A DNA stretch of 64,000 bases from an uncultured Candidatus Saccharibacteria bacterium (lineage in GTDB: Bacteria > Patescibacteriota > Minisyncoccia > Phycocordibacterales > UBA2100): contig CAYRHX010000001.1 in assembly GCA_964424265.1 (NCBI GenBank), positions 128,498-192,497 on the forward strand, read 5' to 3'. Shown here in pieces: positions 3,575-61,221 of this stretch (position 1 is its first letter; each line of letters begins with the position of its first letter). Made by a program: the position numbers and the translations under genes. The notes beneath the pieces are model-generated. The model was not told the DNA's origin. It saw only the letters and a list, made by a program, of their open reading frames with translations, and did no database searches.

Positions 3575-3667
<93 letters not shown>

Positions 3668-9630: not shown

Positions 9631-9703
9631 TCCGTCTGCCTGGACTCGAACCAGGAACCCCAGAGGTATAAGCTCTGTGCTCTAACCATTGAGCTACAGA
9701 CGG
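9631..9703 (-). tRNA. tRNA with anticodon UAU (putative tRNA-Ile reading AUA); C1:G72 first pair
   Basis: Reverse complement CCGTCTG-TA-GCTC-AATGGTTA-GAGC-A-CAGAG-CTTATAC-CTCTG-GGGTT-CCTGG-TTCGAGT-CCAGG-CAGACGG-A is a perfect 73-nt cloverleaf. U33/A37 present. CCA not encoded. Confidence 0.7.
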
Positions 9704-14685: not shown

Positions 14686-15072
14686 GGGGGTGACTGGCTT
14701 CGACAGGAAATTCAGTGTGCCTGTGGGCGATGCGGAAGTGAGTGACTTCCTTAAAACACTCAAATCTAAGTGCAAACAAAACTGCACGGGGGATCCTCTC
14801 TCCTATTCAGGCGAAGGATCTCGGCCTCGTTTTCGCTTAATCGCCTAGACGACCGTTCGCTCAGTTGACATCCGATATATTGATGCGAGCGTCATAAAAT
14901 TCGGGTCCGATCTTCGCTTCACTCCGAGCGATGATCTAAAGAAAGAGAGTTCGGCTACGCGTTATCTTGTACGTTCTCGAGACGCATGGCCTAAACCAAA
15001 AGAACGTCCTACGCATCGTAGAATCGCTTTCACATCATTTTCTGGACTCGGGATCGTTCCCCGACACCTCCA
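14686..15072 (+). ncRNA. ssrA: tmRNA (SsrA), one-piece
   Basis: 5' GGGGGUGACUGGCUUCGACAGG matches the tmRNA consensus. 3' T-arm-like stem-loop plus acceptor CACCUCC pairing with the 5' end. Internal tag ORF from GCA at 14772 gives ANKTARGILSPIQAKDLGLVFA*. Located after smpB. Confidence 0.75.
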
Positions 15073-15082
15073 CATTAGTCCA

Positions 15083-15120: not shown

Positions 15121-15477
15121 ATAGCTTGATTTATTCTTCTTTTTAGATAAGTATTCCTGTGCGGCTTGAAGACCATGCTACTGAGATGTGGCGAAAGGCA
15201 CTGAAAATCGGGTGTGTCGTTCCGAGTAGACCAGATCGAAAGGAAGACGGCGACACTTAGACATGGGTTAGCAGCCCACCGATGCGCCTTAGGGAGAGCC
15301 GTTCCAACAAAGGAGGTGCGACGCTGTGGTAGTTTCGCACGAGGGGCACCCGCTTGGTGCCCTTCGTCTTTTCAACCTTTCACTTTCACAACAACACCAA
15401 GGGCAGACATAAATTCATCAACGGAGCTGCCGTAAATAATCTGCGGCAGTAGCGTTTTCCAAACTCCCCGACTATCT

Positions 15478-15575
15478 CCACTCGATTCGGCCATGAAATG
15501 GCCTCGCTCGTGGCAAGCCACCACGACTCGTCGACCGCCCATCAAGGGCGGTTTTCGCGTTGCCGAATCGAGTGT
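15478..15575. repeat. structured ~100-nt element closed by a 12-bp stem (CACTCGATTCGG/CCGAATCGAGTG) with internal hairpins; its 5' ~60 nt repeated at 15960-16005
   Basis: Direct repeat CCACTYGATTCGGCCATRAAATGGCCKCGCTCGTKGCAAG flanks the GIY-YIG gene on both sides. Confidence 0.5.
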
Positions 15576-15610
15576 CCCGAGCAACGTCGAGGGACTGGTA
15601 TTATTTATTC

Positions 15611-15877
15611 ATGTACTTTGTCTACATGATCCAAAACGTCCACGGCGATCTCTATGTCGGGATTACTGACAGCCCCGAACAGCGCCTCAAGTATCACAAT
15701 CAGCAACGTGGGGCTCAATTTACAAAAAGGGTCCCGACATTCGAGGTTGTATTCCTCGAACACTACCCGACCCTGGCTGCGGCGCGTAAGCGGGAAGTCC
15801 AAATCAAGAAGTGGCGCCGAGACAAAAAAGAAATACTGATTGAAAGGTACCAAAAAGGTTTAGAAACAAAAAAATAA
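15611..15877 (+). CDS. GIY-YIG nuclease-domain protein (YhbQ/UPF0213-like, standalone)
   Basis: YVYMIQNVHGDLYVGITDSPEQRLKYH = GIY-YIG motif. ~89 aa. Start chosen at MYFVYMIQ; the ORF opens at 15560. Confidence 0.7.
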   Translation: MYFVYMIQNVHGDLYVGITDSPEQRLKYHNQQRGAQFTKRVPTFEVVFLEHYPTLAAARKREVQIKKWRRDKKEILIERYQKGLETKK

Positions 15878-16071
15878 ATTCTCACATTCTTCCATTCGAC
15901 CCACTGCGTTCTCTCATGATAAACCATATTCCGTTTTGCCGGCAGTCGTTCATTAGGTTCCACTTGATTCGGCCATAAAATGGCCGCGCTCGTTGCAAGA
16001 CACCGCGCAGGATAACTCTTCCCTGCTCCGTCGACACTGACACCTTCATCGGGGAGTGTTAATATTTCGTT

Positions 16072-16959
16072 ATGGAATCAACGCACGCATCTACCCCACC
16101 AATACCCCAGACCGCATACGTGCTTATTGTCGCCGGTGCTGCTGCAGCTGGCGCATTGGCGGGCGTTGTCGTGATGGATTTCGTACAAGACTCGATGTTG
16201 CGGGGCCCAACTTTCGGAGTCCCCTATGCATGCAACGTGATCGGTGTACAAGTGCACGGCACAATCGTGGGAAGCGTGGCCGATATCCCGATCATGGACT
16301 TTTTGCAAACATACGACGAGATGGGGGTGTCTACAATCACACATCCTAATTACACGGTTACCAACGAGGTAGAGGATCGCCTCCGATACTACAGAGAGGA
16401 TCCAACTATACGAGGACTACTTATCGACGTGCAATCGAGCGGCGGCGGAGTGGTGCCAGGTAATGAGCTCGCGAGTGCGTTTAAGAATTTTGGTAGACCC
16501 TCGGCTGCTGTCATCCACGAGATCGGCGCGTCTGCCGGCTACCTTGCGGCAGCGTCAGGAAATATCGTATTCGCCGCAAAGGGATCACTCGTCGGCTCTA
16601 TCGGCGTGACCAGTTCATACGTCGACAACGTGCGACAAAACGAAAAGGACGGGCTGACATTCAATCAGCTGAGCTCTGGTCCGCTCAAAGATACATTCAA
16701 TCCAAACAAAACCCTCACAAAAGCGGAGCGCGATCTGATAATGGCCGACTTGAAGATCTTGCGAGACAGCTTCGTACAGCGAGTCGCTGATTTTCGCGGC
16801 AAGACGTATGAAGCAATCGATCAGCTTGCCGATGGTTCCACACTCCTCGGCAACGCAGCACTTGAGAAGGGCCTGATCGATAAAATCGGCGGCACCGATG
16901 ACGCGATAGCATATCTTGAAGAACAAATCGGCGAGCCCGTAACTATTTGTTGGCAATAA
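16072..16959 (+). CDS. sppA: signal peptide peptidase SppA (S49 family)
   Basis: N-terminal TM. ClpP/crotonase-fold motifs LLIDVQSSGGGV and EIGASAGYLAAASGNIVFAAKGSLVGSIGV (Ser nucleophile context). Confidence 0.8.
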   Translation: MESTHASTPPIPQTAYVLIVAGAAAAGALAGVVVMDFVQDSMLRGPTFGVPYACNVIGVQVHGTIVGSVADIPIMDFLQTYDEMGVSTITHPNYTVTNEVEDRLRYYREDPTIRGLLIDVQSSGGGVVPGNELASAFKNFGRPSAAVIHEIGASAGYLAAASGNIVFAAKGSLVGSIGVTSSYVDNVRQNEKDGLTFNQLSSGPLKDTFNPNKTLTKAERDLIMADLKILRDSFVQRVADFRGKTYEAIDQLADGSTLLGNAALEKGLIDKIGGTDDAIAYLEEQIGEPVTICWQ

Positions 16960-16985
16960 GTCTAGGTTGACGGGCACCATCCTCT

Positions 16986-18293
16986 TCACCCCACCTCCCC
17001 CAAGCTTGGAATACCCAAGCGGCGGCGGGAGGTTTCGCCTTTAAAAAGGGTGCGTGTGCGCTCAGGTGTGTCTCCGCGATCGCCAAGGTACGCACCGAAG
17101 CGCATGGCATCAAAGCTTGAACCAAGAAAGACAGCATGCTTACCATACCGACGCGAGATATTATCGACACTCTCATACACCTTTTTTAGCCCTTCTGATT
17201 TTAGTACCGACCCGAAGAGATCGAGTTGCGCACTACCCGCGTCGTGCAATTTCATGAGGGTGATGCCGGTCGCACGGTACTCCGTGCGTTGTCGAAAGAC
17301 TTTTGGAAAATACTCGGATACCACTTTCAAAATATCTTGCGGCACTGAGGTCGCGTGCGAGAGTTTGATTTCGTATCCGTGATACCGAAAATCTTGTGTT
17401 TTGAGAAAAAAGAATATTTCGCGCGTCGCGAGGTTCCACCGACGCGCCTTGATGCAAGCATTCTCGACATTTTTAGAAAGCTGAGAGAAGACGAACTGCA
17501 GATCGCGCGATGGCGGCGTAAACGTTTTGGTTTTTTGGATGGATTGGTAGCTCTTGCGCCCTGTTGTGTCGAGCTCATATACCACTTCCCCATTGATCTC
17601 CCGCCATATTTCCACGTAGGGTTTCGAGAGGTTTGCGCGCACCCACTCTTCGTCTTTGCGCGCAAGCTGAAGCGCGGTGCGTATGCCAAATTTCTCGAGA
17701 TACGCGGCCGTATTTGATCCAATACCCCACAAGTTGATACACGGAGTTTTCGCGAGATACTGCTCTGCGTCGCGTAGCGGAATAATCGTGAGCCCCGCGG
17801 GCTTCTTCCACTTAGAGCCAATCTTTGCCAACACCTTCGTGGCAGAGACACCGATGGAGAAGGTCATGCCGAGCTCGCGTTCGAGATCGCGCTGCATCGC
17901 TTCGGCGATTTTCGGATATGGCATGTGATGCACGCGCCGGAGGCCCGTGAGGTCAGCAAAACATTCGTCGATCGAATATTCTTCGACCGCGGGCGTGTAA
18001 CGGCGCACGATCTCATACATCCGATGCGAAAAGAGACTGTACGTCTCATAATCCGACGGCAATATGATCGCATCGGGACACGCCTTCAGCGCCTCGCGAA
18101 GCGAGACTCCACGCTTCACCCCCCTCGCCTTTGCTTCGTACGTGCACGCCGATACAATCCCCCGCTCTTTCCCCGTGATCACGGGCTTTCCTCGTAGACT
18201 CGGATTTTTCGCAACTTCGCACGACGCAAAAAAAGAATCTCCATCGATGTGCAAAATCGCTCTTGGTAGCGAATGTAAGTTTCCCCAGGACAT
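16986..18293 (-). CDS. dinB: Y-family DNA polymerase IV
   Basis: ILHIDGDSFFASCE (catalytic Asp motif), SIDECFADLTG, little-finger domain. 435 aa. Confidence 0.85.
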   Translation of the reverse strand: MSWGNLHSLPRAILHIDGDSFFASCEVAKNPSLRGKPVITGKERGIVSACTYEAKARGVKRGVSLREALKACPDAIILPSDYETYSLFSHRMYEIVRRYTPAVEEYSIDECFADLTGLRRVHHMPYPKIAEAMQRDLERELGMTFSIGVSATKVLAKIGSKWKKPAGLTIIPLRDAEQYLAKTPCINLWGIGSNTAAYLEKFGIRTALQLARKDEEWVRANLSKPYVEIWREINGEVVYELDTTGRKSYQSIQKTKTFTPPSRDLQFVFSQLSKNVENACIKARRWNLATREIFFFLKTQDFRYHGYEIKLSHATSVPQDILKVVSEYFPKVFRQRTEYRATGITLMKLHDAGSAQLDLFGSVLKSEGLKKVYESVDNISRRYGKHAVFLGSSFDAMRFGAYLGDRGDTPERTRTLFKGETSRRRLGIPSLGEVG

Positions 18294-36192: not shown

Positions 36193-36636
36193 CTATGCGA
36201 TTATACCGCCCGCTTTTTCAATAGCACTTCGTGCGGAAGCAGACACTGCAATCCCCTTAAACGAGATCTTTTTGCTCATAACGCCGCCTCCCACGACCTT
36301 GACGGGCACTACCTTGCGCGCTCTCACGACCCCCTTGTCTGCGAGCGCACGGAGCGTGACCTCGCTTCCCGAATCAAACAACGCCTCGACTCGCGCGATA
36401 GTGAGCACGAGCGCATCGAGCTTAGTGCCATCCACGGTACGACCGCGATTCTTCCCATACCCACGCCGCTTCGGCAACTTCTTGATGATGTCGCGCATTT
36501 CGGGGCGCTTCTTGCGACCAGCACGCGCATCCTGACCCTTGGTACCACGGCCTGCCGTTTTGCCACGCTTCCCTCCCCGACCAACACGAGGTTTTGAGCG
36601 TGCCGTTACTCGCCTAAGTAAATTAAGTGTTGCCAT
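36193..36636 (-). CDS. rplO: 50S ribosomal protein L15
   Basis: MATLNLLRRVTARSKPRVGRGGKRGKTAGRGTKGQ.. typical L15. Confidence 0.9.
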   Translation of the reverse strand: MATLNLLRRVTARSKPRVGRGGKRGKTAGRGTKGQDARAGRKKRPEMRDIIKKLPKRRGYGKNRGRTVDGTKLDALVLTIARVEALFDSGSEVTLRALADKGVVRARKVVPVKVVGGGVMSKKISFKGIAVSASARSAIEKAGGIIA

Positions 36637-36637
36637 A

Positions 36638-37255
36638 TTATTTTATACGAGAGAGACTCTTTAGAGCTTCGATAGCTGCGCGCGCGTTGTTGACAGGATT
36701 CTTGCTGCGAGAAAGCAACTTCGCAGTAACATCTGATACTCCCGCGAGCTCGAGTACGGTTCTCACTGAAGAACCCGCTACCAATCCGCGGCCTGGGCTC
36801 GGACGGATCTCAACGCGAGACGCGCAGTACTTTGCTTCAACGTTTCGAGAGAGGCTTCGATTCTTCGTGAGGTTGAGAGTGATCATCGCACGCTTCGCTG
36901 CACGAGTCGCCTTCTCAATCGCCTGCGCTGTATCAGCTGCCTTGCCGAGGCCAACACCCACACGACCCTTCTTGTCCCCGAGCACAAGTGCTGCGCTAAA
37001 GTTAAAACGTCGTCCGCCGGCCATAACTCGCGCGACACGCCGAATACCAATCAGCTTCTGTGCGAATTCGCTGCGACGCTCGTCGCCGCCACGTCGAGGG
37101 CCGCCGCGACCACGCTGACCACCACCTCGGCGATCGCGATTGCCACGCGTACCTGCGAAGGGTGACTTCGCACGATCATCAACAGGTACTGACGCAACCT
37201 CTACGACCTCCGCAACTGCCTCTGCCACCAATCCTCCTGTTTGATCATTAGACAT
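36638..37255 (-). CDS. rpsE: 30S ribosomal protein S5 (no L30 gene between S5 and L15)
   Basis: Gly/Arg-rich N-terminal extension, then IGIRRVARVMAGGRRFNFSAALVLGDKKGRVGVGLGKA. Confidence 0.9.
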   Translation of the reverse strand: MSNDQTGGLVAEAVAEVVEVASVPVDDRAKSPFAGTRGNRDRRGGGQRGRGGPRRGGDERRSEFAQKLIGIRRVARVMAGGRRFNFSAALVLGDKKGRVGVGLGKAADTAQAIEKATRAAKRAMITLNLTKNRSLSRNVEAKYCASRVEIRPSPGRGLVAGSSVRTVLELAGVSDVTAKLLSRSKNPVNNARAAIEALKSLSRIK

Positions 37256-44841: not shown

Positions 44842-45456
44842 TTATCCGCGGATTTCGATAAGAGTCCCGGGTCGGCCAGGTACTGCCCCTGAAATAAGAA
44901 GTGTGTTGGTCGCCACATCGATTTGCAGCACTTTGAGATTCTTGACCGTGACGCGATCCCCTCCCATACGGCCAGCCATGCGCATCCCAGGCACCACTCG
45001 TCCTCCGGCGCGACCACCACCTCCGATAGAGCCAGGACTTCGCTCTTTATTCTTCTGGCCGTGTGAACGCGGACCTCCATGGAAACCGTGACGCTTCACA
45101 ACACCCTGAAAACCTTTGCCTTTAGAAATAGCAGATACCGCAACCACATCTCCCGGCGAGAAAACTGACACATCGATCACGTCTCCCCTTTTCATTTCGC
45201 CTGCCAAGGGGAATTCTCTTAAATATCGAAACGTGGTGAGATCCTTCAAATGCCCTTTTTGCGCGGAATTCGTATTTTTTTCTTTGCGAAAGCCAAAACC
45301 GACTTGCGCCGCTTCGTACCCCTCTTTTTCCTTACCTTTCACTTGTGTAACGGTGAGCGGACCCGCGGTGATGATAGTCGCAGCAGACACAACGCCTTTT
45401 TCATCAAAGACCTGCGTCATACGACCCTTGGTGCCGAGCATAAATTTGGTTGTCAT
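44842..45456 (-). CDS. rplC: 50S ribosomal protein L3
   Basis: MTTKFMLGTKGRMTQVFDEKG... start set at MTTKF. The ORF extends upstream spuriously to 45756. Confidence 0.9.
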   Translation of the reverse strand: MTTKFMLGTKGRMTQVFDEKGVVSAATIITAGPLTVTQVKGKEKEGYEAAQVGFGFRKEKNTNSAQKGHLKDLTTFRYLREFPLAGEMKRGDVIDVSVFSPGDVVAVSAISKGKGFQGVVKRHGFHGGPRSHGQKNKERSPGSIGGGGRAGGRVVPGMRMAGRMGGDRVTVKNLKVLQIDVATNTLLISGAVPGRPGTLIEIRG

Positions 45457-45565
45457 AAAATAGCGAATCCGCGCAACAGCGCGGATGACGGACCCGCACC
45501 ATTGGTCCCGATATGGGGACGTAGCGTGGAAAGCAGTATACGCAGAACCTTCAGAAACGCAATAG

Positions 45566-46058: not shown

Positions 46059-49000
46059 TTACCGCTCTTGAAACGCGGGAAGTATGTTGACAGTGGATGA
46101 TCGGCTCACACTTGACGGCGAGGAACCAGGAAGCCCCTCACATGTGATAGTAAAGACGGTCTGAGAACTCAAAACCGTTCCCCCGCTGCCCTCAGTCCCA
46201 CTCCACGAATCACCATTCGCACTGACGACGGTACACAATTGAGTATTAGCGGTTTGCCAACGAACCTGCACTTGATTCCCTGCTCTTATCAACAATGGCG
46301 TGACGAGCCATTCCGTAATGGAAGGAGGTGGGGTGCCGTTACATCCGCCTAAAGTACATCCATTCGTGCACTGATACACCCGACGGCTTCCACTTTGGCA
46401 TTGGTTTATGATGTCGTCGTGGTCCTCTCCTTGATTTACATCTCCACAACGATTGAAGCACCCTTGGGGCGGCGTACACCGCGTCTGATTCAATATCTGA
46501 TCAAAGGACTCCGTCCACCCTTCTGGACAGCGGTCGAAACGACATGATAAAGATCCTCCGGTACCTTCTTGCCGGTAACCAACGGGACATTGACCAAATC
46601 GACACACCCCGTCGGCGTATAACTCATACCCAGCGGAGCACGTGTATTGGCATTTGGGGGTTCCGCAACTGAGGGCAACCGTGCGGGGTGTGTTTGCGGT
46701 AAGACCAGCAGCGTCTCCTGTGCAGATATTTGTGTTTGAGGGAGTAGCGCCTGTGCAAGAATACTGAGAGACACATTCACCCCCTTGCTTAACGTACCCT
46801 GGAGAACAGTAGTACTCACATTTCTTTGATGGAGTGCAGCTTGAAACGAGAACACGGCCGGAGTCTGATGTGACATTTTCATCGCCCGGGCATGAGGCAG
46901 CATGTTCAGGGATATAACCTCTGCACTCTGGGGGGGTACAGTACCCTGCCTTTACATATTTACAATCCGGCGTATCCGAGTCTACGGCAAAATATGTGTT
47001 AGTGGAGACTTCACAATACCCTCTCTTGAGGAGACATTCTGGTATCGGATTACACTGCCCGCCGTACACGTAAGCACATGCGACTGGATCGACGTCGTTT
47101 TGGACACCATTGACCCCATCCGCATTCGCGTCGCAGTAGGGTTGTTTGGTGCAGGATTGAGTATCCCTCACCACCACATTCACCCAATCGGAGCAGTTGT
47201 TGTTTTCGTTTGTTGATGTTGCGGTGAGTCCTTCACGGACAGAACCAGTATCGGTAGCGGAGCTCTTGTCTGCACATGCTCTCACTGAGGATGTGCCTGT
47301 TGACGTGAAGATGTACGAGCGGGAGATGTCGTCGCTCGATCCTTCCACAAGCGGAGGGAGAGAGTTTGCGACGAGGCCTGTGATGGCGCCTCCGCCGTCT
47401 GGCGCGGTAGCTACTTGGAAGAAGTTGTAGAAGTTCTGACTGCCTGTCGGGGCGCCTCCCTGGTTTACGATGGTGGCTGAGAGTGTGGTTGATGCGTTGC
47501 GGATCGTGGCTGTAGGGCTTGTGTTGATGGCGGTGAGGTCGGGGTAGATGGGATCGCACCTGAGACCCGAGGGATATGGTTGACATGCGTCATTGATTTC
47601 TTGTTGGATGTAGGTTTCTGCGTCGCAGTAGGGTTGCCTGTTGCAAACACACGCTCCATTCTGAAGTACTTGGCCTGCGGGGCACACAATGACGCACTCG
47701 CCATTTTGAAGTGTCTGGCCAGCTGGGCAAATCAAAACGCATGTGCCATTTTGACGTGTTTGACCAGCGGGACACGCAACGTCTGTCACCACCACATTCA
47801 CCCACAGGGAGCAGTTGTTGTTTTCTCCTAGATCTTCGTCGGGTCCTTCGTAAACGGAACCTGTGTTGGTAGCAGAACTCTTGTCTGCGCATGCTCTCAC
47901 AGAGTATGTGCCGGCTGATGTGAAAGTGTATGGACTGGAGATGCTGCCACTGGCTCCCGACGTGAGAGCGGATATGAATACAGGAGAAAGGCCTGTGATG
48001 GCGCCTCCGCCATCTGCCGCGGTAGCTACTTGGAAGAAGTTGTAGAAACCGCTCCCCGTTGGAGCGCCCCCTCTGTTTGTAATATCGGCAGAGAGTGTGG
48101 TCGAGGCGTTGCGGGTTGTCGTTGCGGGGCTTGTGTTGAGGGCGGTGAGGTCGGGGTAGTGAGGGTTGCATTGTCCCCCATACACATATGCGCAAACGGT
48201 TGCATCGACTTCGTAGAAGGTATCGGTGTTTGCATCACAGTAGGCAGTTTTGCTACATGGTATCGGATTACACTGCCCCCCGTACACGTACGTGCACGAT
48301 TCCACGTCGACGTCATTCTGAGTGTCTGTTGCTGCGTCGCAGTAGGGTTGCCTGTTGCAAACACACGCTCCATTCTGAAGTACTTGGCCTGCGGGGCACA
48401 CAATGACGCACTCGCCATTTTGGCGTGTTTGACCAGCGGGACACGCAACGTCTGTCACCACCACATTCACCCACAGGGAGCAGTTGTTGTTTTCTCCTAG
48501 ATCTTCGTCGGGTCCTTCGTAAACGGAACCTGTGTTGGTAGCAGAACTCTTGTCTGCGCATGCTCTCACAGAGTATGTGCCTGTTGACGTGAAGATGTAC
48601 GAGCGGGAGATGTCGTCGCTCGATCCTTCCACAAGCGGAGGGAGAGAGTTTGCGACGAGGCCTGTGATGGCGCCTCCGCCGTCTGGCGCGGTAGCTACTT
48701 GGAAGAAGTTGTAGAAGTTCTGACTGCCTGTCGGGGCGCCTCCCTGGTTTACGATGGTGGCTGAGAGTGTGGTTGATGCGTTGCGGATCGTGGCTGTAGG
48801 GCTTGTGTTGATGGCGGTGAGGTCGGGGTAGAGGTCGTTGCACAACCTTCCGGAAGGCCGGAGTGTACATGCACTTGTGTTCCCTACGACCTCTTGATAT
48901 TGACCGTTTTCGCAGAACCCTACGAGAGTACACGTGTCTGGGACACACGATCCATTCTGAAGTACTTGGCCTGCGGGGCAGCCGTCGTCAACACACGATC

Positions 49001-52000
49001 CATTCTGAAGCACTTGGCCTGCGAGGCACACAATGACGCACTCGCCATTTTGAAGTGTCTGGCCAGCTGGGCAAATCAAAACGCATGTGCCATTTTGACG
49101 TGTTTGACCAGCGGGACACGCAACGTCTGTCACCACCACATTCACCCACAGGGAGCAGTTGTTGTTTTCTCCTAGATCTTCGTCGGGTCCTTCGTAAACG
49201 GAACCTGTGTTGGTAGCGGAGCTCTTGTCTGCACATGCTCTCACTGAGGATGTGCCTGTTGACGTGAAGATGTATGAACTGGAGATGCTGCCACTGGCTC
49301 CCGACGCGAGAGCGGATATGAATACGGGAGAAAGGCCTGTGATAGAGCCTCCGCCGTCTGCCGCGGTAGCTACTTGGAAGAAGTTTTGGAATCCACTTCC
49401 TGTCGAATGGGCTCCACGATTTGTGATGACGGCAGAGAGTGTGGTTGATGCGTTGCGGGTTGTCGTTGCGGGGCTTGTGTTGAGGGCGGTGAGGTCGGGG
49501 TAGAGGTCGTCGATGGTCGCAACCTCCACATTCACCCACGCGGAACAATTATTGCCTTCGTAGGGTCCTTCGTTGTTTGATCCAGGATCATTCGCATAAC
49601 TTTTGTCCGCACACACTCGCGTGGAGTATATACCGGCAGATGTGAATGTGTGCGGAAGATAAATGTCGCGACTTGTTCCTGGCGCAAGCGGAAGAGAAGT
49701 GGCAGACGCGAGGTTGGTAATGGCAATGTCGCCTCCGCCATTTGCACCTAAAGCTACCTGAAATAAATTCTTGAAGCTGTTGCCTGCCAGGGCGCCTCCT
49801 TGATTTGTAATGGTGGCTGAGAGTGTGACAGAAACACCGACCGTTGCAGATGTTGGACTCGTATTAAAGGCTACGAGATCTGGATATATGGAGACACATC
49901 CTTCACCATCCTTGGTAAATCCAGAAGAGCACGTGTACTCACATTTGGATGCTTCGCTAGGCACACTACAGTCGTAGACAAGCTTTCTGGGCGTGTCTGA
50001 GGCGAGACCATCGGCGTCTCCTCCGCAGAGATTCGCGTTGGAGGGGGCGGAGCCGGTGCAGGAGTAGGTGATAGCGACACACGCGCCATCTTGAAGTACG
50101 TATCCGGAAGAACATGTGTATTCACATTTTGTTGACGGACTGCAACTGGATACAAGAGTGCGAGGGGTACTCGTAGCGAGCTCAACGTCGTCGCCTGTGC
50201 AAATATTTGAATTCGAGGGAGTTGCTCCGGTGCAAGCGCAACTCCCAACTGTGGAGGTAGCCCCCGCTGCTATATATGTAATCACGACAAGACCAGAACC
50301 GCCGGAAGTGCCGTTGCTATAGCCAGCTGTCGCCTGAGCTCCCATACCAACACCGGGAACATACGAGGAGTCCGTCATGTTCGCGGCATTGCGGCCACTC
50401 CCCGCGATGAGAGTTGCTCCGACCCCATATCCAGAACCACCGCCGCCACTTCCCACCTGTGCGCCACTGTCGACTCCATTTCCGCCACCACCCCCAAAAT
50501 ATCCTCCTCCGCCGCCACCACCACCATAACTCCTCGCACCACCGCCCGAGCCAGAACCTCCCTGAAGCGCGCTCCCAGATGACCAGCCTCCTCCACCTGC
50601 AGATTGCGTGCCACCAGTACCGCTCAAAGATGCTGCGCCACCACTCGCTCCACCACCGGGACCTGCATTACTTGCAGATCCTTGATCTCCTACTCCTCCC
50701 GATCCGCCTCCCCCTCCTGCAATGATGAGCGCACTTGCCTGAGAAACAGCACCTCGAAATACTCCCGAGTAGCCTCCACCCCCACCACCGCTTGTACACG
50801 GGACCCGGAAATTACATGCCACAGCTCCGCCTACTCCGCCTCCCGGTGAACCGCCCGCCCCCGGCGCAAAATCTCCGAGTTGTGAGGTTTTACCACCTTT
50901 TCCAGAATCACCCACGGCAATTGTAAGGGTCTCACCTGCTGTCACGCTGAGAGTGCGCTGTGCAAATCCACCTCCACCCCCAATGCCGCCCGTTACACCA
51001 CTCGCGCCCCCTCCACCTCCTCCTGCTCCCCATGCTTTCACGGTAACATTTGTCACGCCTGTGGGAACGACAAATGAGTGCACACCTATCGTAGAAAAAG
51101 TCCTAGTGTCGGAAGAGGTCGTCGATACTGACTGAGAACAGGAAGGTCCGGGGGGAGGAGTGACGACACACACACCGCCTTCATTGGTATATCCAGCAGC
51201 GCATGTGTATCTAATGTCAACGAGGCCAGTGCCTCCAGCAGTTCCGCTTGCCTGAGCTCCCATACCAACACCAGGAACATACGAAGAGTCCGTCATGTTC
51301 GCGGCATTGCGGCCACTCCCCGCAACGAGAGTTGCTCCGACCCCATATCCAGAACCGCCGCCGCCGCTTCCTACCTGATAACTAAAATCTACTCCATTCC
51401 CGCCTCCACCGCCAAAGTATCCACCACCACCACCGCCACCGCCATAATTTGTTCCTCTTGTGCCAGCTCCCCCCGATAGAACGCTCCCGGAGTACGAACC
51501 TCCAGCCAATTGTGTCCCGCCAAAGCCATGTTGCTCTACAAACGAGCTGTTTACACCAGATGAACCTCCTCCTGCTCCGCCATTGCTTGCATAAGCATAA
51601 TTTCCGGTACCCCCTGAGCCGCCGCCGCCGCCAGCAATCAATAGTGCGCCGGCTTGTGATACGGTGCCACGAAAGACCCCTGAATATCCTCCCCCTCCTC
51701 CTCCGGTCGAACACAAGATCGCATTTTGACAACCTGCGTAAGAAGCTCCTGGAGCGCCTCCTGGAGCGCCTCCTGCTCCCGCAATGTTTGAAAGAGTGCT
51801 ACCGCCTTTACCGGAATCGCCGACGGCAATGGTGAGCGTCTCGCCCGATGTCACGCTAAAAGTGCGCTGCGCAAATCCACCGCCGCCGCCATATCCACTT
51901 GCGGCGCCATTACCCCCTCCTGATCCTCCACCAGCGCCCCACGCTTTCACGGTAATTTCTGTGACCCCAACAGGAACAACGAAGGTGCGCGTGCCTGGTG

Positions 52001-52142
52001 TTGAGAAAATACTTGCGGCAAACGCGGAGGAAGGCGCTAATATCGCCGCTATAAAAACAAGCGCAACACCTACCAAAAAGAAATTCTCTGAAATGTGATC
52101 GACGACCGCTGAGATGTAACCATGCCTCACACGCTTGATCAT
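46059..52142 (-). CDS. giant (2027-aa) cell-surface protein: N-terminal TM/signal, two glycine-rich modules, tandem CARDB-like and Cys-rich (CPAGQxxQNGxCV) repeat units, C-terminal Ig-like domain
   Basis: One uninterrupted ORF. Repeated protein blocks YPDLTALNTSPATTTRNASTTLSA...SVRACADKSSATNTGSVYEGPDEDLGENNNCSLWVNVVVTDVACPAGQTRQNG. Gly-rich GGGSGGG...GFAQRT(F/L)SVT(S/A)GETLTIAVGDSGKGG occurs twice. Confidence 0.8.
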   Translation of the reverse strand: MIKRVRHGYISAVVDHISENFFLVGVALVFIAAILAPSSAFAASIFSTPGTRTFVVPVGVTEITVKAWGAGGGSGGGNGAASGYGGGGGFAQRTFSVTSGETLTIAVGDSGKGGSTLSNIAGAGGAPGGAPGASYAGCQNAILCSTGGGGGGYSGVFRGTVSQAGALLIAGGGGGSGGTGNYAYASNGGAGGGSSGVNSSFVEQHGFGGTQLAGGSYSGSVLSGGAGTRGTNYGGGGGGGGYFGGGGGNGVDFSYQVGSGGGGSGYGVGATLVAGSGRNAANMTDSSYVPGVGMGAQASGTAGGTGLVDIRYTCAAGYTNEGGVCVVTPPPGPSCSQSVSTTSSDTRTFSTIGVHSFVVPTGVTNVTVKAWGAGGGGGGASGVTGGIGGGGGFAQRTLSVTAGETLTIAVGDSGKGGKTSQLGDFAPGAGGSPGGGVGGAVACNFRVPCTSGGGGGGYSGVFRGAVSQASALIIAGGGGGSGGVGDQGSASNAGPGGGASGGAASLSGTGGTQSAGGGGWSSGSALQGGSGSGGGARSYGGGGGGGGYFGGGGGNGVDSGAQVGSGGGGSGYGVGATLIAGSGRNAANMTDSSYVPGVGMGAQATAGYSNGTSGGSGLVVITYIAAGATSTVGSCACTGATPSNSNICTGDDVELATSTPRTLVSSCSPSTKCEYTCSSGYVLQDGACVAITYSCTGSAPSNANLCGGDADGLASDTPRKLVYDCSVPSEASKCEYTCSSGFTKDGEGCVSIYPDLVAFNTSPTSATVGVSVTLSATITNQGGALAGNSFKNLFQVALGANGGGDIAITNLASATSLPLAPGTSRDIYLPHTFTSAGIYSTRVCADKSYANDPGSNNEGPYEGNNCSAWVNVEVATIDDLYPDLTALNTSPATTTRNASTTLSAVITNRGAHSTGSGFQNFFQVATAADGGGSITGLSPVFISALASGASGSISSSYIFTSTGTSSVRACADKSSATNTGSVYEGPDEDLGENNNCSLWVNVVVTDVACPAGQTRQNGTCVLICPAGQTLQNGECVIVCLAGQVLQNGSCVDDGCPAGQVLQNGSCVPDTCTLVGFCENGQYQEVVGNTSACTLRPSGRLCNDLYPDLTAINTSPTATIRNASTTLSATIVNQGGAPTGSQNFYNFFQVATAPDGGGAITGLVANSLPPLVEGSSDDISRSYIFTSTGTYSVRACADKSSATNTGSVYEGPDEDLGENNNCSLWVNVVVTDVACPAGQTRQNGECVIVCPAGQVLQNGACVCNRQPYCDAATDTQNDVDVESCTYVYGGQCNPIPCSKTAYCDANTDTFYEVDATVCAYVYGGQCNPHYPDLTALNTSPATTTRNASTTLSADITNRGGAPTGSGFYNFFQVATAADGGGAITGLSPVFISALTSGASGSISSPYTFTSAGTYSVRACADKSSATNTGSVYEGPDEDLGENNNCSLWVNVVVTDVACPAGQTRQNGTCVLICPAGQTLQNGECVIVCPAGQVLQNGACVCNRQPYCDAETYIQQEINDACQPYPSGLRCDPIYPDLTAINTSPTATIRNASTTLSATIVNQGGAPTGSQNFYNFFQVATAPDGGGAITGLVANSLPPLVEGSSDDISRSYIFTSTGTSSVRACADKSSATDTGSVREGLTATSTNENNNCSDWVNVVVRDTQSCTKQPYCDANADGVNGVQNDVDPVACAYVYGGQCNPIPECLLKRGYCEVSTNTYFAVDSDTPDCKYVKAGYCTPPECRGYIPEHAASCPGDENVTSDSGRVLVSSCTPSKKCEYYCSPGYVKQGGECVSQYSCTGATPSNTNICTGDAAGLTANTPRTVALSCGTPKCQYTCSAGYELYADGVCRFGQCPVGYRQEGTGGSLSCRFDRCPEGWTESFDQILNQTRCTPPQGCFNRCGDVNQGEDHDDIINQCQSGSRRVYQCTNGCTLGGCNGTPPPSITEWLVTPLLIRAGNQVQVRWQTANTQLCTVVSANGDSWSGTEGSGGTVLSSQTVFTITCEGLPGSSPSSVSRSSTVNILPAFQER
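47190..49560. repeat. near-identical tandem DNA repeats (~670-675 bp period, at least 3 copies) inside the giant gene
   Basis: String CACCCACAGGGAGCAGTTGTTGTTTTCTCCTAGATCTTCGTCGGGTCC recurs near 47795, 48470 and 49144. Long stretches are identical between copies. Confidence 0.75.
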
Positions 52143-53070: not shown

Positions 53071-54279
53071 TTACATTGCTCCATTCATTACATTGGGGTC
53101 GTAATATATCTTATCCGATTTATGCGAGACAAGGTCGATACATTCATACGTCCTGTAAAAAGGAAGCGTCTTGCATATATCGTGAAGGGCTTGTATGTAC
53201 AACTCATTACCCCTTGATCGGTCAATGGAATAGGCAATCCTAGTCGCAACTACCGCCGTACACATTACTCGTTCTGCAGGACTGCTCGTTTCAGCACACA
53301 TTCCACTCACATCTTCATACTGTACGGCCCTCGTGGCACGACCTGCAATAAACTTGACGCACGCCATTCGATAGCGGTCGTTTTCAATCTGTTTGCAGTA
53401 ACGCATATTCTTAGTGAAATCATCTGGAGTCAGATTAAAATTCTCAAAAAACGCAGAGTGTTGTCCATAACATGCAACTTTGTATTTTTCATCTACAGAA
53501 TCACATACTTTAAACGTCATTCGCCCGTCTTTTACCTCGACCATGTCTCGTGTCGCGAAATCTTGTGCCATCTCCATAAACACTCCCATATAACATGAGT
53601 AGTTCTTTACAGGATCGCTGGTGACATTGTCGCATACATAGAGAGCGTCGTCGGTCGCATATTCTAATTGGACAAACGCTGCATGCCCCATGCCATGGAA
53701 GCAATCGATCGCATTTTTCAGCCCCGGTTCCTTGCACACATTCGAAAGTATCTTCACCAACATTTCTTTATCGTTCGTCTGTTTAGAGTACTCTTCTATC
53801 ACGCCGTGAAAATACCCGTTGCCACACGTGGATACATTCTTGAAGTAGGCATCTTCAGACATCGTCGCAAAGGCTTTCCCGATGTCTCCTTTGTTAACTT
53901 GCAACTGCGCATGCCCAATGCCGTGTGATACATAGTGGCAATCTTCAACGAAGCTTTTACTCTCCTTTTGCAAAAGCGCGAGATGCGAGAATGATCTCCT
54001 AACACCGTGCGTAAGCGTGTATTCGATATAAAAATCCCTTAGACAGTCTTGTGTTCTCTTATTCGCAAGGGCGCCTCGTGTCTGTTTGCATTTGTTGATA
54101 TGCTCCCATTCAGCGTCAGTGATGGCGATACTGCCTACAACCGATTCTTGAGCAGTAATCCTGGAATAGTAGTAAGCGAGACTCTCCTTGGGGACGAAAG
54201 TCCGATAACAGTAGCCCGATAAAATACCCACCACTAGGAGGCCGAGCACGACTACCCACTTGCTGACCTGCTTGAACAT
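53071..54279 (-). CDS. membrane-anchored Cys/His-rich protein with repeated C..HGxGHA motifs (paralog A)
   Basis: N-terminal TM. CHYVSHGIGHA, CGNGYFHGVIEE, CFHGMGHAA, CYMGVFME. Paralogous to 55891..57126. Confidence 0.6.
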   Translation of the reverse strand: MFKQVSKWVVVLGLLVVGILSGYCYRTFVPKESLAYYYSRITAQESVVGSIAITDAEWEHINKCKQTRGALANKRTQDCLRDFYIEYTLTHGVRRSFSHLALLQKESKSFVEDCHYVSHGIGHAQLQVNKGDIGKAFATMSEDAYFKNVSTCGNGYFHGVIEEYSKQTNDKEMLVKILSNVCKEPGLKNAIDCFHGMGHAAFVQLEYATDDALYVCDNVTSDPVKNYSCYMGVFMEMAQDFATRDMVEVKDGRMTFKVCDSVDEKYKVACYGQHSAFFENFNLTPDDFTKNMRYCKQIENDRYRMACVKFIAGRATRAVQYEDVSGMCAETSSPAERVMCTAVVATRIAYSIDRSRGNELYIQALHDICKTLPFYRTYECIDLVSHKSDKIYYDPNVMNGAM

Positions 54280-55890: not shown

Positions 55891-57126
55891 TTACAGCCAT
55901 GCTACCAAGTGATACCACTTTGACAACTCATCAACTGTAGAGAACCGCAAATCTTTTTCAGATGTAAAGAAAAGGCGACTCCTATCGACAAAGACGAGAT
56001 GCTTGCATTCTCGCGCATAGAGAGGATTGAGCGTATCGCACACATACTTCACAACGGATTGATAATCCTCACTTTTCCGAGCACTGTCCATTGAACCTCC
56101 GATTCTATCTGCCATCACTGCAGTACACATGACACGCTCTTGAGCAGAAGTGATATTAAGGCACATCTCATATATTTCCTTGTAGTGGACCAACCTTACT
56201 GCCCTGATCGCAAAGAGCTTGACACAAGCCATACGATTGAGACCGTCTCCAATTTGCTTGCAGAAACCAATATTCCTCGTGTAATTTTTCCCTTCTTTCG
56301 AATACGACTGAAAGAATGAGGATTGCTCCAAATAACATGCCGGTTGGTATTTTTTCTCCAATGAATCACACAGGACGAAACTCATTTTTTGATTTTCCAC
56401 GCGGACTGCATCCTTAAATTCTTGACCATACTCCATAAAACCGCCCGTGTGACATCCGAATACACGGTCGGGTCTCTGTGAAATCCGATCACAAACGTAC
56501 ACCATGTCTTCAACACTGTAATCGGTCTGGATCATTGCCGCATGCCCTACTCCATGAAAACAGCCTCCGGCGTTAGAAATCTCTTTGTTATTACAAATGG
56601 GACGAAGAACCGTTACGAGATCATCTCTGTCTGCGACATCTTTTGCCATTTCTTCAATCACGCCGTGAAAGAAACCATTTCCGCATGTGACCACATTTTT
56701 GAAATAACCCCCAGACGACATGAACGTATACGCCTTATATGGATCGTCGCCGCTTAGACGAAAGACGGCATGTCCAATACCATGAGAAATATAGTGGCAG
56801 CTCGAGAGCAACTCGGGGCGCTCTTTTTGTAATCGCGCAAGATGCGCGAAGGCCCTTTCACCCCCCTGCTCCATAGCATACGTATCGTAAAAACTACGCA
56901 TACACTCCTCCACCCTACTTCCTCCCGATTTGACTTTCTGACACCGATTGATTTTCTCTAGATCTTCCGCTGTGACCTTTACGTCATCTATGATCTTCTC
57001 CTGATTTTCAATAATCGAATAGTAGCGAGCTATTTCTGCTTTCTTTATGTGCTGAGAGTACTGGAGTGCCGCGAAAGTACCGATTATTACAAAAGCCACA
57101 AAGGCAATTTCTCTTCTACTAAGCAT
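55891..57126 (-). CDS. membrane-anchored Cys/His-rich protein with repeated C..HGxGHA motifs (paralog B)
   Basis: CHYISHGIGHA, CGNGFFHGVIEE, CFHGVGHAA, CHTGGFME. Collinear with paralog A. Confidence 0.6.
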   Translation of the reverse strand: MLSRREIAFVAFVIIGTFAALQYSQHIKKAEIARYYSIIENQEKIIDDVKVTAEDLEKINRCQKVKSGGSRVEECMRSFYDTYAMEQGGERAFAHLARLQKERPELLSSCHYISHGIGHAVFRLSGDDPYKAYTFMSSGGYFKNVVTCGNGFFHGVIEEMAKDVADRDDLVTVLRPICNNKEISNAGGCFHGVGHAAMIQTDYSVEDMVYVCDRISQRPDRVFGCHTGGFMEYGQEFKDAVRVENQKMSFVLCDSLEKKYQPACYLEQSSFFQSYSKEGKNYTRNIGFCKQIGDGLNRMACVKLFAIRAVRLVHYKEIYEMCLNITSAQERVMCTAVMADRIGGSMDSARKSEDYQSVVKYVCDTLNPLYARECKHLVFVDRSRLFFTSEKDLRFSTVDELSKWYHLVAWL

Positions 57127-60840: not shown

Positions 60841-61221
60841 TTACATCATCTTCACGTCGATTGAGACGCCAGATGGAAGGTCGATATTGGTGAGAGCTTC
60901 GATCACCTTTGGCTCTGGATTCAAAATATCGATCATGCGCTTATGGATACGCATTTCAAATTGCTCGCGAGAATCTTTGTCGATGAAAGCAGCGCGGTTG
61001 ACCGTGTATTTCTTGATATCAATGGGGAGCGGGACGGGGCCGATGACTTCTGCGTTGTGCCGTGCAGCGACATCGATGATTTGCTTCACCGCACCATCAA
61101 GGACACCGTGCTCATAGGCACGCACGCGAATACGCAAGCGGCTTGGGCCCGCAGCTTTTTTGACAGCACGTGGAGCACGAGCCTTCACAGGAGCCTTGGT
61201 GACCTTTGATTCCGCTGTCAT
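60841..61221 (-). CDS. rpsJ: 30S ribosomal protein S10 (with basic N-terminal extension)
   Basis: LRIRVRAYEHGVLDGAVKQIIDVAARHNAEVIGPVPLP...FEMRIHKRMIDILNPEPKVIEALTNIDLPSGVSIDVK collinear with S10. Confidence 0.85.
   Translation of the reverse strand: MTAESKVTKAPVKARAPRAVKKAAGPSRLRIRVRAYEHGVLDGAVKQIIDVAARHNAEVIGPVPLPIDIKKYTVNRAAFIDKDSREQFEMRIHKRMIDILNPEPKVIEALTNIDLPSGVSIDVKMM

Follow-up and report, generated by a model that had tools for sequence, protein, structure and literature searches.

A giant modular gene next to ribosomal protein genes

We analysed a stretch of 64,000 nucleotides (contig CAYRHX010000001.1 of NCBI GenBank assembly GCA_964424265.1, positions 128,498 to 192,497 of the forward strand; hereafter the window), in which a giant gene on the minus strand lies close to genes for ribosomal proteins. 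Its open reading frame (ORF) of 6,084 nt starts with ATG, runs uninterrupted over 2,027 codons plus stop and encodes, from the N-terminus, a hydrophobic segment, two glycine-rich domains (GRD1 and GRD2), a stalk of five CARDB domains with cysteine-rich modules, a PKD/Ig-like beta-sandwich and a seven-residue tail (Table 1). The protein contains 16.9% Gly and 96 Cys residues, the latter in regular modules. It is identical to entry P0128 of a public collection, where it forms a singleton cluster at 90% identity, and a full-length search for proteins of the same architecture returned no architecture-mate.

The only hydrophobic segment of the giant protein lies at residues ~17-48 (Kyte-Doolittle maximum over 19 residues, 2.37), where a basic n-region and a 22-residue hydrophobic core are followed by AFA↓AS, which suggests a Sec signal peptide, probably cleaved at this site, or a signal anchor. 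An LPXTG sortase signal is absent, as the C-terminus reads ...NILPAFQER and there is no second hydrophobic segment anywhere in the protein. Searches of Pfam and NCBIfam gave no matches at E<=1 for SLH domains, a Por_Secre_tail or RTX repeats with a type I secretion signal, detected no toxin or enzymatic domain, and yielded no NCBIfam model for the whole protein; Rfam had no match inside the gene.

An earlier sequence-only reading of the window had described a single 6.1-kb ORF for a giant, modular surface protein with an N-terminal anchor, two Gly-rich modules, CARDB and Cys modules and an Ig-like C-terminus. This outline withstood the analysis. The frame is intact, the anchor corresponds to the sole hydrophobic segment (as signal peptide or anchor), the GGGFAQRT...GETLTIAVGDSGKGG cores of the Gly-rich modules were located at residues 87 and 390, CARDB was recognized by Pfam and the Cys modules in the sequence, and the Ig-like C-terminus agrees with a structure model and its PKD matches; export itself is predicted from the sequence.

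Table 1. Features of the giant gene, its immediate neighbours and the positional orthologue. Positions refer to the window unless another contig is named.
Feature	Residues	Position	Strand	Basis
Giant ORF, 6,084 nt, 2,027 codons + stop, ATG start		46059..52142	-	
N-terminal signal peptide or signal anchor (predicted)	1-45	52008..52142	-	Sole hydrophobic segment in protein
GRD1, 34% Gly	46-313	51204..52007	-	Pfam, AF2, Foldseek
CAAGYTNEGGVC disulfide-type hairpin + Pro/Ser/Thr linker	314-345	51108..51203	-	Sequence; two short strands in model
GRD2, 36% Gly	346-624	50271..51107	-	72% identity to GRD1; phrog_1589 E=3.5e-10
Two ~58-aa six-Cys modules (C..P.N..C.GD...TPR.LV..C...KCEYTCSSGY....G.CV)	625-752	49887..50270	-	Sequence
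U1: CARDB, most diverged (50-72% nt identity to others)	753-880	49503..49886	-	Pfam, DNA comparison
U2: CARDB type A + 4 CPAGQ hairpins + Cys module	881-1104	48831..49502	-	Pfam, sequence
U3: CARDB type B + 2 CPAGQ hairpins + 2 QPYCDA...YVYGGQCNP modules	1105-1328	48159..48830	-	Sequence, DNA comparison
U4: CARDB type A + 3 CPAGQ hairpins + 1 QPYCDA module	1329-1532	47547..48158	-	Sequence, DNA comparison
U5: CARDB type B	1533-1660	47163..47546	-	Pfam, DNA comparison
C-terminal Cys-rich region (30 Cys): QPYCDA modules, two six-Cys modules, CxxGY/W hairpins	1661-1935	46338..47162	-	Sequence
PKD/Ig-like beta-sandwich (predicted)	1936-2020	46083..46337	-	AF2, Foldseek, alignment
LPAFQER tail, P-x-[F/Y]-x-E-x	2021-2027	46062..46082	-	Pattern comparison with relatives
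TPR-repeat protein gene, N-terminal hydrophobic segment		52153..53010	-	Upstream; stop 10 nt before giant ATG; 59% identity to L011 counterpart
154-aa protein, signal peptide + C-terminal hydrophobic helix		45566..46030	-	28 nt downstream of giant gene; 51% identity to L011 counterpart
Positional orthologue P0132, 950 aa		L011 10001-12853 (GCA_964437185.1, CAYTFU010000001.1)		226-kb contig of a metagenome-assembled genome, same ENA analysis-accession series

Two glycine-rich domains of the ALK/LTK type

GRD1 and GRD2 are 72% identical in protein sequence and 69% identical in DNA over 742 nt. About 11 Gly-rich motifs occur in each, and their alignment consists of a framework that is 80-100% identical and of two stretches that are only 27-60% identical. 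GRD1 passed the cut-off of the Pfam family PF12810 (ALK_LTK_GRD) by a small margin (25.2 versus 24.5 bits), and GRD2 alone matched only PF21722, below its threshold (16.6 versus 24.3 bits). Both Gly-rich modules matched phrog_1589, with phrog_863 matched as well, and a phmmer search of the PDB returned LTK (7nx0, E=0.002) as its sole match.

Based on an alignment of 36 sequences, AlphaFold (AF2) modelled the GRD with a pLDDT of 92.7 and a pTM of 0.91 as a TNF-like beta-sandwich with a poly-Gly lattice. Foldseek aligned this model at a probability of 1.0 with the Bxb1 tail tip (9d93), the TNF-like plus glycine-rich (TG) regions of LTK and ALK (7nx1, 7nx3, 7ls0) and the Pam3 fibre (7ypx) in the PDB, and a comparison with predicted viral structures yielded 193 matches at E<=1e-3 to phage GRD proteins with template-modelling (TM) scores of 0.6-0.76. 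According to these models, the Gly-rich modules belong to the ALK/LTK-type "TNF-like + glycine-rich" fold family, which is common to phage receptor-binding proteins. Given the confident predicted fold, we rejected the view of these regions as disordered or of low complexity, and the beta-helix that had been considered for them gave way to the ALK/LTK-type GRD fold.

Our first search for GRD homologues returned proteins of <=497 aa only and was uninformative on long GRD proteins; later searches included the long ones. A profile search then recovered 34,666 cluster representatives at E<=1e-3, which reach 7,819 aa in length and 11 copies per protein and include surface proteins of Bacteroidota and 'lectin-like' proteins of jumbo phages. 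Because this family is very large and many of its giant members are multi-copy, the tandem arrangement of GRDs within the giant protein is in itself ordinary. In cyanophage Pam3 gp24, GRDs have been assigned to host-receptor recognition, with variable loop tips on a conserved Gly framework, and the authors point out the resemblance to ALK and to S16 gp38 (PMC9608196). The ligand-binding region of ALK/LTK consists of a TNF-like, a glycine-rich and an EGF-like part (PMC10605310).

The stalk is a mosaic of diverged units and identical tracts

Pfam detected CARDB (PF07705) at 84.3 bits (cut-off 22.7, E=7.7e-24) in five stretches, each of which starts with YPDL (residues 753, 881, 1105, 1329 and 1533) and which define units of 128, 224, 224, 204 and 128+ aa. 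The sequence-only reading had counted at least four units of ~224 aa, each joining a CARDB domain to CPAGQxxQNGxCV modules. A tandem array is indeed present, but it comprises five CARDB domains, and only U2 and U3 measure 224 aa; the CPAGQxxQNGxCV modules, in runs of 4, 2 and 3, follow the CARDB domains of U2, U3 and U4, respectively, but are absent from U1 and U5. In Pfam, the six-Cys modules matched Antistasin marginally (22.0 bits, cut-off 21.2) and Sushi, EB and beta-defensin below threshold. Because the Antistasin-type matches appear to reflect Cys spacing only, we assigned the Cys modules to no family.

At the DNA level, the units were not the near-identical repeats of ~670 bp that had been anticipated, as whole-unit pairwise identity was 76-84%. 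Instead, identical tracts of 258 nt (U3/U5; 48575-48832 and 47291-47548), 193 nt (U2/U4; 47681-47873 and 49025-49217), 158 nt (U3/U4), 119, 91, 63 and 54 nt sit in units that are otherwise 57-86% identical, with neighbouring segments down to 57-67%. U3 and U5 are 98-100% identical over the first ~270 nt and 64-79% identical thereafter, and the C-terminal part of CARDB is 95-100% identical among U2, U3 and U4 versus 59-90% for the N-terminal parts. Superimposed on this is a higher-order A-B-A-B pattern, in which U2 resembles U4 and U3 resembles U5. As read from the DNA, such a mosaic bears the marks of unequal recombination and gene conversion, and the identical tracts embedded in diverged units support the ongoing recombination that the sequence-only reading had proposed. 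Its further suggestion of a contingency locus, in the sense of simple-sequence phase variation, was not sustained: Tandem Repeats Finder reported only a 45-nt CPAGQ repeat and two trivial Gly-codon repeats (30 and 12 nt), all in frame, and no simple-sequence tract occurs in the ORF or in the 10-nt upstream spacer.

The ORFs of 80-210 aa that overlap the array (47580-49548, in other frames and on the plus strand) repeat together with it; they are not genes but shadow ORFs produced by the GC-rich repeats.

Three assemblies give three lengths of the array

The complete giant gene was found on one NCBI contig only (193.8 kb), and its neighbours occurred on three or four further contigs, all of which match the window at 100% identity over the shared sequence; they therefore represent one clonal population that was sampled repeatedly. 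None of the further contigs carries the full gene, as each breaks inside it or has a shorter array, in keeping with the earlier warning that the repeats are assembly-prone. Contigs from the 5′ side stop at window positions 50989, 51058, 51417 and 51455, inside the GRD1/GRD2 duplication, and two contigs from the 3′ side stop at 47282 and 47197, inside U5. One contig (L003, ERZ27247830) reads from 50438 to 48575 and continues at 47548; it lacks 1,284 nt in frame, is joined within the 258-nt tract and keeps three CARDB domains. Another (L010, ERZ27247817) reads from 50557 to 49212 and continues at 47315, thereby losing 1,959 nt in frame across the 63-nt tract, whose two copies lie at 49212-49274 and 47253-47315, and retaining two CARDB domains. 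Thus, three assemblies of one population contain five, three and two CARDB copies.

These short-array forms are either real recombinants in the population or the result of collapse by the assembler MEGAHIT. It is a substantial possibility, though one that we rate somewhat below even odds, that assembly artefacts account for the length of the array in the window or for its shorter versions elsewhere. The copy number would then have a single true value without biological variation in length, and the 'recent expansion' would in part be due to assembler threading. The differing copy numbers, the restriction of the complete gene to a single contig and the position of all other contig ends or jumps in the GRD duplication, in U5 or at identical tracts are what such an artefact would produce; furthermore, the contigs are MEGAHIT k141 assemblies, and the 258-nt tract is longer than k. 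In MEGAHIT, chimeric joins made at lower k can persist. However, the 1,284-1,959 nt absent from the short forms include unique sequence (the U4 variants, the double QPYCDA module of U3 and the U3-to-U4 junction), which must therefore stem from real reads, and the long form was not invented from nothing. The junction tract of 63 nt in L010 is shorter than k=141, which makes a simple graph collapse at the final k less likely, and real recombination on the array is supported independently by its patchwork of identical and diverged blocks. We consider it unlikely that the A-B-A-B pattern arose by artificial concatenation of two alleles, since both short forms retain the U1-to-U2 junction and no U1-to-U4 junction was seen. 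In any case, an assembly artefact would be compatible with the function proposed below for the protein.

A PKD-like C-terminal domain and a conserved tail

The last 103 residues were modelled by AF2 with a pLDDT of 91.7 as a seven-strand sandwich, in which the tail forms a seven-residue coil past the last strand. Foldseek found PKD domains, in 1l0q and in ColG (4tn9/4aqo), as the best matches at TM scores of 0.56-0.67. Pfam gave no sequence match for this domain, and its PKD membership applies at the fold level only. In the alignment of relatives, the pair C1970/C2001 (one Cys invariant, the other 90% or more conserved) and W1962 are conserved.

A search with residues 626-2027 retrieved CARDB proteins of 800-2,370 aa, whose named sources were mostly metagenome-assembled genomes (MAGs) of Candidatus Paceibacterota, Nomurabacteria and Kaiserbacteria. 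Nearly all of these relatives (n=77, P0130-P0206) begin with classical signal peptides; they carry TSP1, Sushi, VWA, fn3 or PKD domains, and PF12810 occurs in none of the 77. At the extreme C-terminus, 49 of the 77 match P-x-[FYIWLV]-x-E-x(1-2) and 69 have Glu at position -2. The motif is often preceded by KKK, resulting in the consensus (KKK)-P-x-[F/Y]-x-E-[N/F/D]. For this analysis, and not as a curated family, we therefore grouped proteins that have a signal sequence at the N-terminus, contain Ig-like/CARDB repeats and, counted from the C-terminus, show Pro at -6, Glu at -2 and, at -4, a residue that is either aromatic or aliphatic; the giant protein with its LPAFQER end shows all of these features.

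The tail was absent from GRD proteins of other taxa that served as controls (0/120 small and 0/209 giant proteins, 0/329 together). The terminal domains that precede it are of at least three unrelated types, and where copies of the same Ig-like repeat occur internally, the tail is missing; among the loci examined, it is confined to large surface proteins, and no hydrophobic helix comes after it. No NCBIfam model matched the tails, and we found no description in the literature of a C-terminal sorting motif of this kind in the Candidate Phyla Radiation (CPR). The sequence comparison suggests that the tail may be a lineage-specific recognition signal for sorting or anchoring.

In one genome (L013, GCA_037139975.1), the gene of the tail-bearing CARDB relative P0135 (1,735 aa) directly precedes a gene for a T2SSE-family (type IV pilus or secretion) ATPase (15276-16988).

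A relative carries a different head at the same locus

A 950-aa protein, P0132, is encoded at exactly the position of the giant gene in a related genome (L011; Table 1), between a gene for a TPR protein and one for a small membrane protein, followed by rplC, rplD, rplW and rplB, which are 75-90% identical to their counterparts in the window. Thus, the order TPR, X, small protein, rplC is conserved. P0132 begins with a hydrophobic segment of a similar kind and contains two CARDB domains with CPxGQVLxxGxCV hairpins as well as Cys-rich modules. Its stalk and C-terminal domain are 38-58% identical to those of the giant protein, with 58% over the last 103 residues, and the Cys-rich region at residues 1661-1935 aligns with the equivalent region of P0132. 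The head, however, is a VWA domain (E=6.4e-15), where the giant protein has two GRDs. The P-x-F-x-E-x motif of P0132 (LPTFEEN) is internal and followed by one extra Cys hairpin. A constant base and stalk with an exchanged N-terminal module is what would be expected, from the sequences, of an adhesin under diversifying pressure, and the head swap speaks for the N-terminus as the functional end of the protein.

Beyond this genome, a scan of genome contigs found only two remote CARDB loci, in a Bacteroidales MAG and in Candidatus Yonathbacteria, neither of which is syntenic, and no relatives came from two scans of metagenome contigs, in which the C-terminal domain and the TPR neighbour served as queries.

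At L011 5328-7489, YcaO and nitroreductase-family genes adjoin the gene for a PQQ beta-propeller. In the window, ~650 nt separate rpsJ from the start of the propeller gene (58571), which is too little to accommodate them. Pairs of YcaO and nitroreductase-family genes are typical of azoline-forming peptide maturation.

Genomic neighbourhood and lineage

The genes rpsJ and rplC normally adjoin in the S10 operon. In the window, rpsJ (60841-61221) and rplC (~44842-45441) are kept apart by ~15.4 kb of genes for envelope or secreted proteins on the minus strand, namely a PQQ beta-propeller, a 468-aa protein, two Cys-rich paralogues, the TPR protein, the giant protein and the small membrane protein. 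The wider neighbourhood comprises tuf, rpsJ, rplC-rplD-rplW-rplB and genes for membrane proteins, and no phage genes. One might speculate that the 154-aa protein encoded downstream is a partner or anchor of the giant protein. The scan for promoters and terminators was at chance level, with one hairpin (45467-45486) between the small ORF and rplC.

The two paralogous genes (53071-54279 and 55891-57126, both on the minus strand) encode proteins of 402 and 411 aa that are 40-42% identical, with an N-terminal membrane helix, 16-17 Cys each and no Pfam family. Rfam matched only three loci in the window, a tmRNA (14686-15075, plus strand, 113 bits) and tRNA genes at 9631-9703 and 3580-3667 (both minus strand).

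Loss of ribosomal protein L30 is a known CPR trait. In the window, rpsE (36638-37255) abuts rplO (36193-36636) on the minus strand and leaves no room for an L30 gene. Because of this arrangement, the named homologues of the stalk and the Yonathbacteria match in the contig scan, the giant gene is likely of Paceibacteria-type (CPR) origin, as far as sequence comparison can tell.

Proposed function and alternative explanations

We propose, with a probability of roughly 0.6, that the giant protein is a Sec-exported, adhesin-like protein on the surface of a Paceibacteria-type bacterium, built of a binding head, a recombining stalk and a base at the envelope. The ORF, its domain identities, the mosaic repeats, the different head that a relative carries at this locus and the conserved tail are the observations on which the proposal builds; its export, its orientation, the binding of ligands, true variation in length and any function of the tail are what we infer. 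The head would consist of the two tandem GRDs, whose fold is used by phage tail fibres and by ALK/LTK for ligand binding. Because their framework is near-identical and two loop regions differ, GRD1 and GRD2 probably recognise two related but distinct surface ligands. The five CARDB (Ig-like) domains and the disulfide-bonded hairpins would form a stalk, a long spacer that resists proteases. Through the identical DNA tracts that they share, its units could be shuffled, and deleted or duplicated in frame, by gene conversion and homologous recombination, so that the reach of the stalk changes and the protein stays intact. The base, formed by the PKD-like domain and the P-x-F-x-E-x tail, would probably serve in retention on, or hand-over to, the cell envelope. 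Epibiotic Patescibacteria require multiple adhesins (PMC10633639), and a function as attachment factors has been suggested for Ig/PKD-domain proteins that Paceibacteria secrete (PMC10936435); a role of the giant protein in episymbiosis would be in line with this.

Several points weigh against this proposal. The PF12810 score of GRD1 is barely over the threshold, and the TM score of the GRD to solved ALK/LTK structures is only ~0.4. The GRD heads are N-terminal, beside the sole hydrophobic segment, and if this segment is an uncleaved anchor, the heads would be nearest to the membrane and the orientation would be wrong. None of the recognised anchoring motifs (LPXTG, SLH, C-terminal helix) was found in the giant protein, and we found no ligand reported for any bacterial cellular GRD protein. 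The CPR affiliation is indirect, the adhesin role is predicted from sequence and models, and the shorter arrays may be assembly artefacts, so that real length variation is no more than a possibility.

Three other functions have to be weighed against surface adhesion. The protein might be a structural component of the envelope or coat, S-layer-like or matrix, with its domains used for self-assembly and protection. Its size, its Thr/Ser/Gly-rich and Cys-stabilised composition and the position of the gene among envelope and membrane genes beside a highly expressed ribosomal operon would suit such a component, and the top Foldseek match of the C-terminal domain is the PKD domain of an archaeal S-layer protein. 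We nevertheless consider a coat protein unlikely, since no SLH or other S-layer anchoring domain was found in Pfam or NCBIfam, GRDs of known function bind receptors (PMC9608196, PMC10605310), and P0132 keeps the stalk and swaps the head for VWA, a classical ligand-binding adhesion module, which is hard to square with a lattice former. A soluble lectin-like agglutinin or antagonistic factor that is released and not retained on the producer appears quite improbable. The cleavable-looking AFA↓AS after the sole hydrophobic segment, the lack of a C-terminal membrane anchor and the 'lectin-like' annotation of giant GRD proteins in jumbo phages speak for release, but a C-terminal domain and tail common to many large proteins of the lineage suggest a shared retention or handling step, and toxin or enzymatic domains were not detected in the protein.

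The prevalence of the GRD fold in phage receptor-binding and tail proteins, together with the phrog_1589 and phrog_863 matches, could also point to a phage tail-fibre gene or prophage remnant. The chance of this is minimal: the neighbours of the giant gene are ribosomal, tuf and membrane-protein genes, the locus is conserved in the related genome L011, and the N-terminal signal sequence and CARDB/Cys stalk are typical of cellular proteins of Paceibacterota. A prophage tail fibre is effectively refuted by the gene context.

On the preferred reading of the giant protein as a surface adhesin, a more far-reaching scheme, which we rate as less likely than not, can be put forward tentatively. In this scheme, the tail would be a new sorting or anchoring signal of Paceibacteria-type CPR that is read by a dedicated partner, possibly the small membrane protein encoded downstream. 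Between the TPR gene and rplC, there would be a conserved expression site with a constant stalk and base and interchangeable heads (two GRDs or VWA), and reach would be tuned within a clonal population by repeat recombination.

CARDB, the ALK/LTK-type GRD, PKD-like domains, Cys hairpins, giant multi-GRD proteins and giant CARDB proteins of Paceibacterota are already known; new are the C-terminal tail, the way in which the domains are combined and the exchange of the head at a conserved locus next to the ribosomal operon. Host recognition and attachment in CPR/Patescibacteria are largely unknown beyond a few cultured Saccharibacteria, and this locus provides a concrete, testable candidate, in which a binding fold proven in phage host recognition and ALK/LTK signalling is paired with a stalk of changeable length and a head swap in a relative. 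The head swap indicates which part of the protein suits binding assays. If the tail is a true sorting signal, it would offer a simple sequence tag to catalogue the surface proteome of a large uncultured lineage. The locus also serves as a warning about assembly, as one population yielded a different repeat number in each of three assemblies.

Comparison with known systems

The GRDs resemble the TG region of ALK/LTK (PF12810; 7nx0, 7nx1, 7nx3, 7ls0) by the PF12810 match, by LTK as the sole PDB sequence match and by a Foldseek probability of 1.0. In addition, ALK/LTK share with the giant protein a ligand-binding extracellular region, predicted in the case of the latter, and the small Cys-rich hairpin after the GRD is comparable to the EGF-like part of ALK (PMC10605310). 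In contrast to ALK/LTK, the giant protein is bacterial, has no kinase and contains two tandem copies, the TM score is ~0.4, and its ligands cannot be ALKAL cytokines. The same fold, with TM scores of up to 0.76, is found in phage GRD receptor-binding proteins such as Pam3 gp24, Salmonella phage S16 gp38, the Bxb1 tail tip and GRD proteins of Caulobacter phages and cyanophages (9d93, 7ypx). Like Pam3 gp24, the GRDs combine a conserved Gly framework with variable loops (PMC9608196), and their Gly content of 34-36% is close to the 39% of gp24. Unlike the phage proteins, the giant gene is cellular, with a ribosomal-operon neighbourhood, and its product has a signal peptide and a CARDB/Cys stalk and lacks the trimerising N-terminal helix bundle; a chaperone gene is likewise missing.

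The CARDB proteins of Paceibacterota, Nomurabacteria and Kaiserbacteria (P0135, P0142, P0161, P0162, P0158 and P0132) share CARDB, Cys modules, PKD/Ig repeats, signal peptides and the tail with the giant protein, but their heads are VWA, TSP1, Sushi, fn3 or PKD domains, and only the giant protein has GRDs. Giant multi-GRD proteins, including substrates of the type IX secretion system in Bacteroidota and others, also have tandem GRDs in very large surface proteins. However, their partner domains are LamG, HYR, Por_Secre_tail and cadherin-like domains, CARDB is not among them, and none of the 209 has the tail.

Gram-positive repeat-stalk adhesins (Rib/alpha-C, SasG/Aap B-repeats) have a signal peptide, an N-terminal binding region, tandem Ig-like stalk repeats that vary in number through homologous recombination, and a C-terminal attachment region. 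In terms of design logic, the giant protein follows the same order of signal, head, tandem Ig-like stalk and attachment end, but it lacks an LPXTG/sortase signal, its repeats are mosaic and not uniform, and no homology is expected. We regarded domain-sized tandem DNA repeats with long identical tracts as the mark of a length-variable repeat stalk, and the giant gene has such repeats. By analogy, the giant protein may work like the Gram-positive repeat-stalk adhesins, to which it is probably unrelated.

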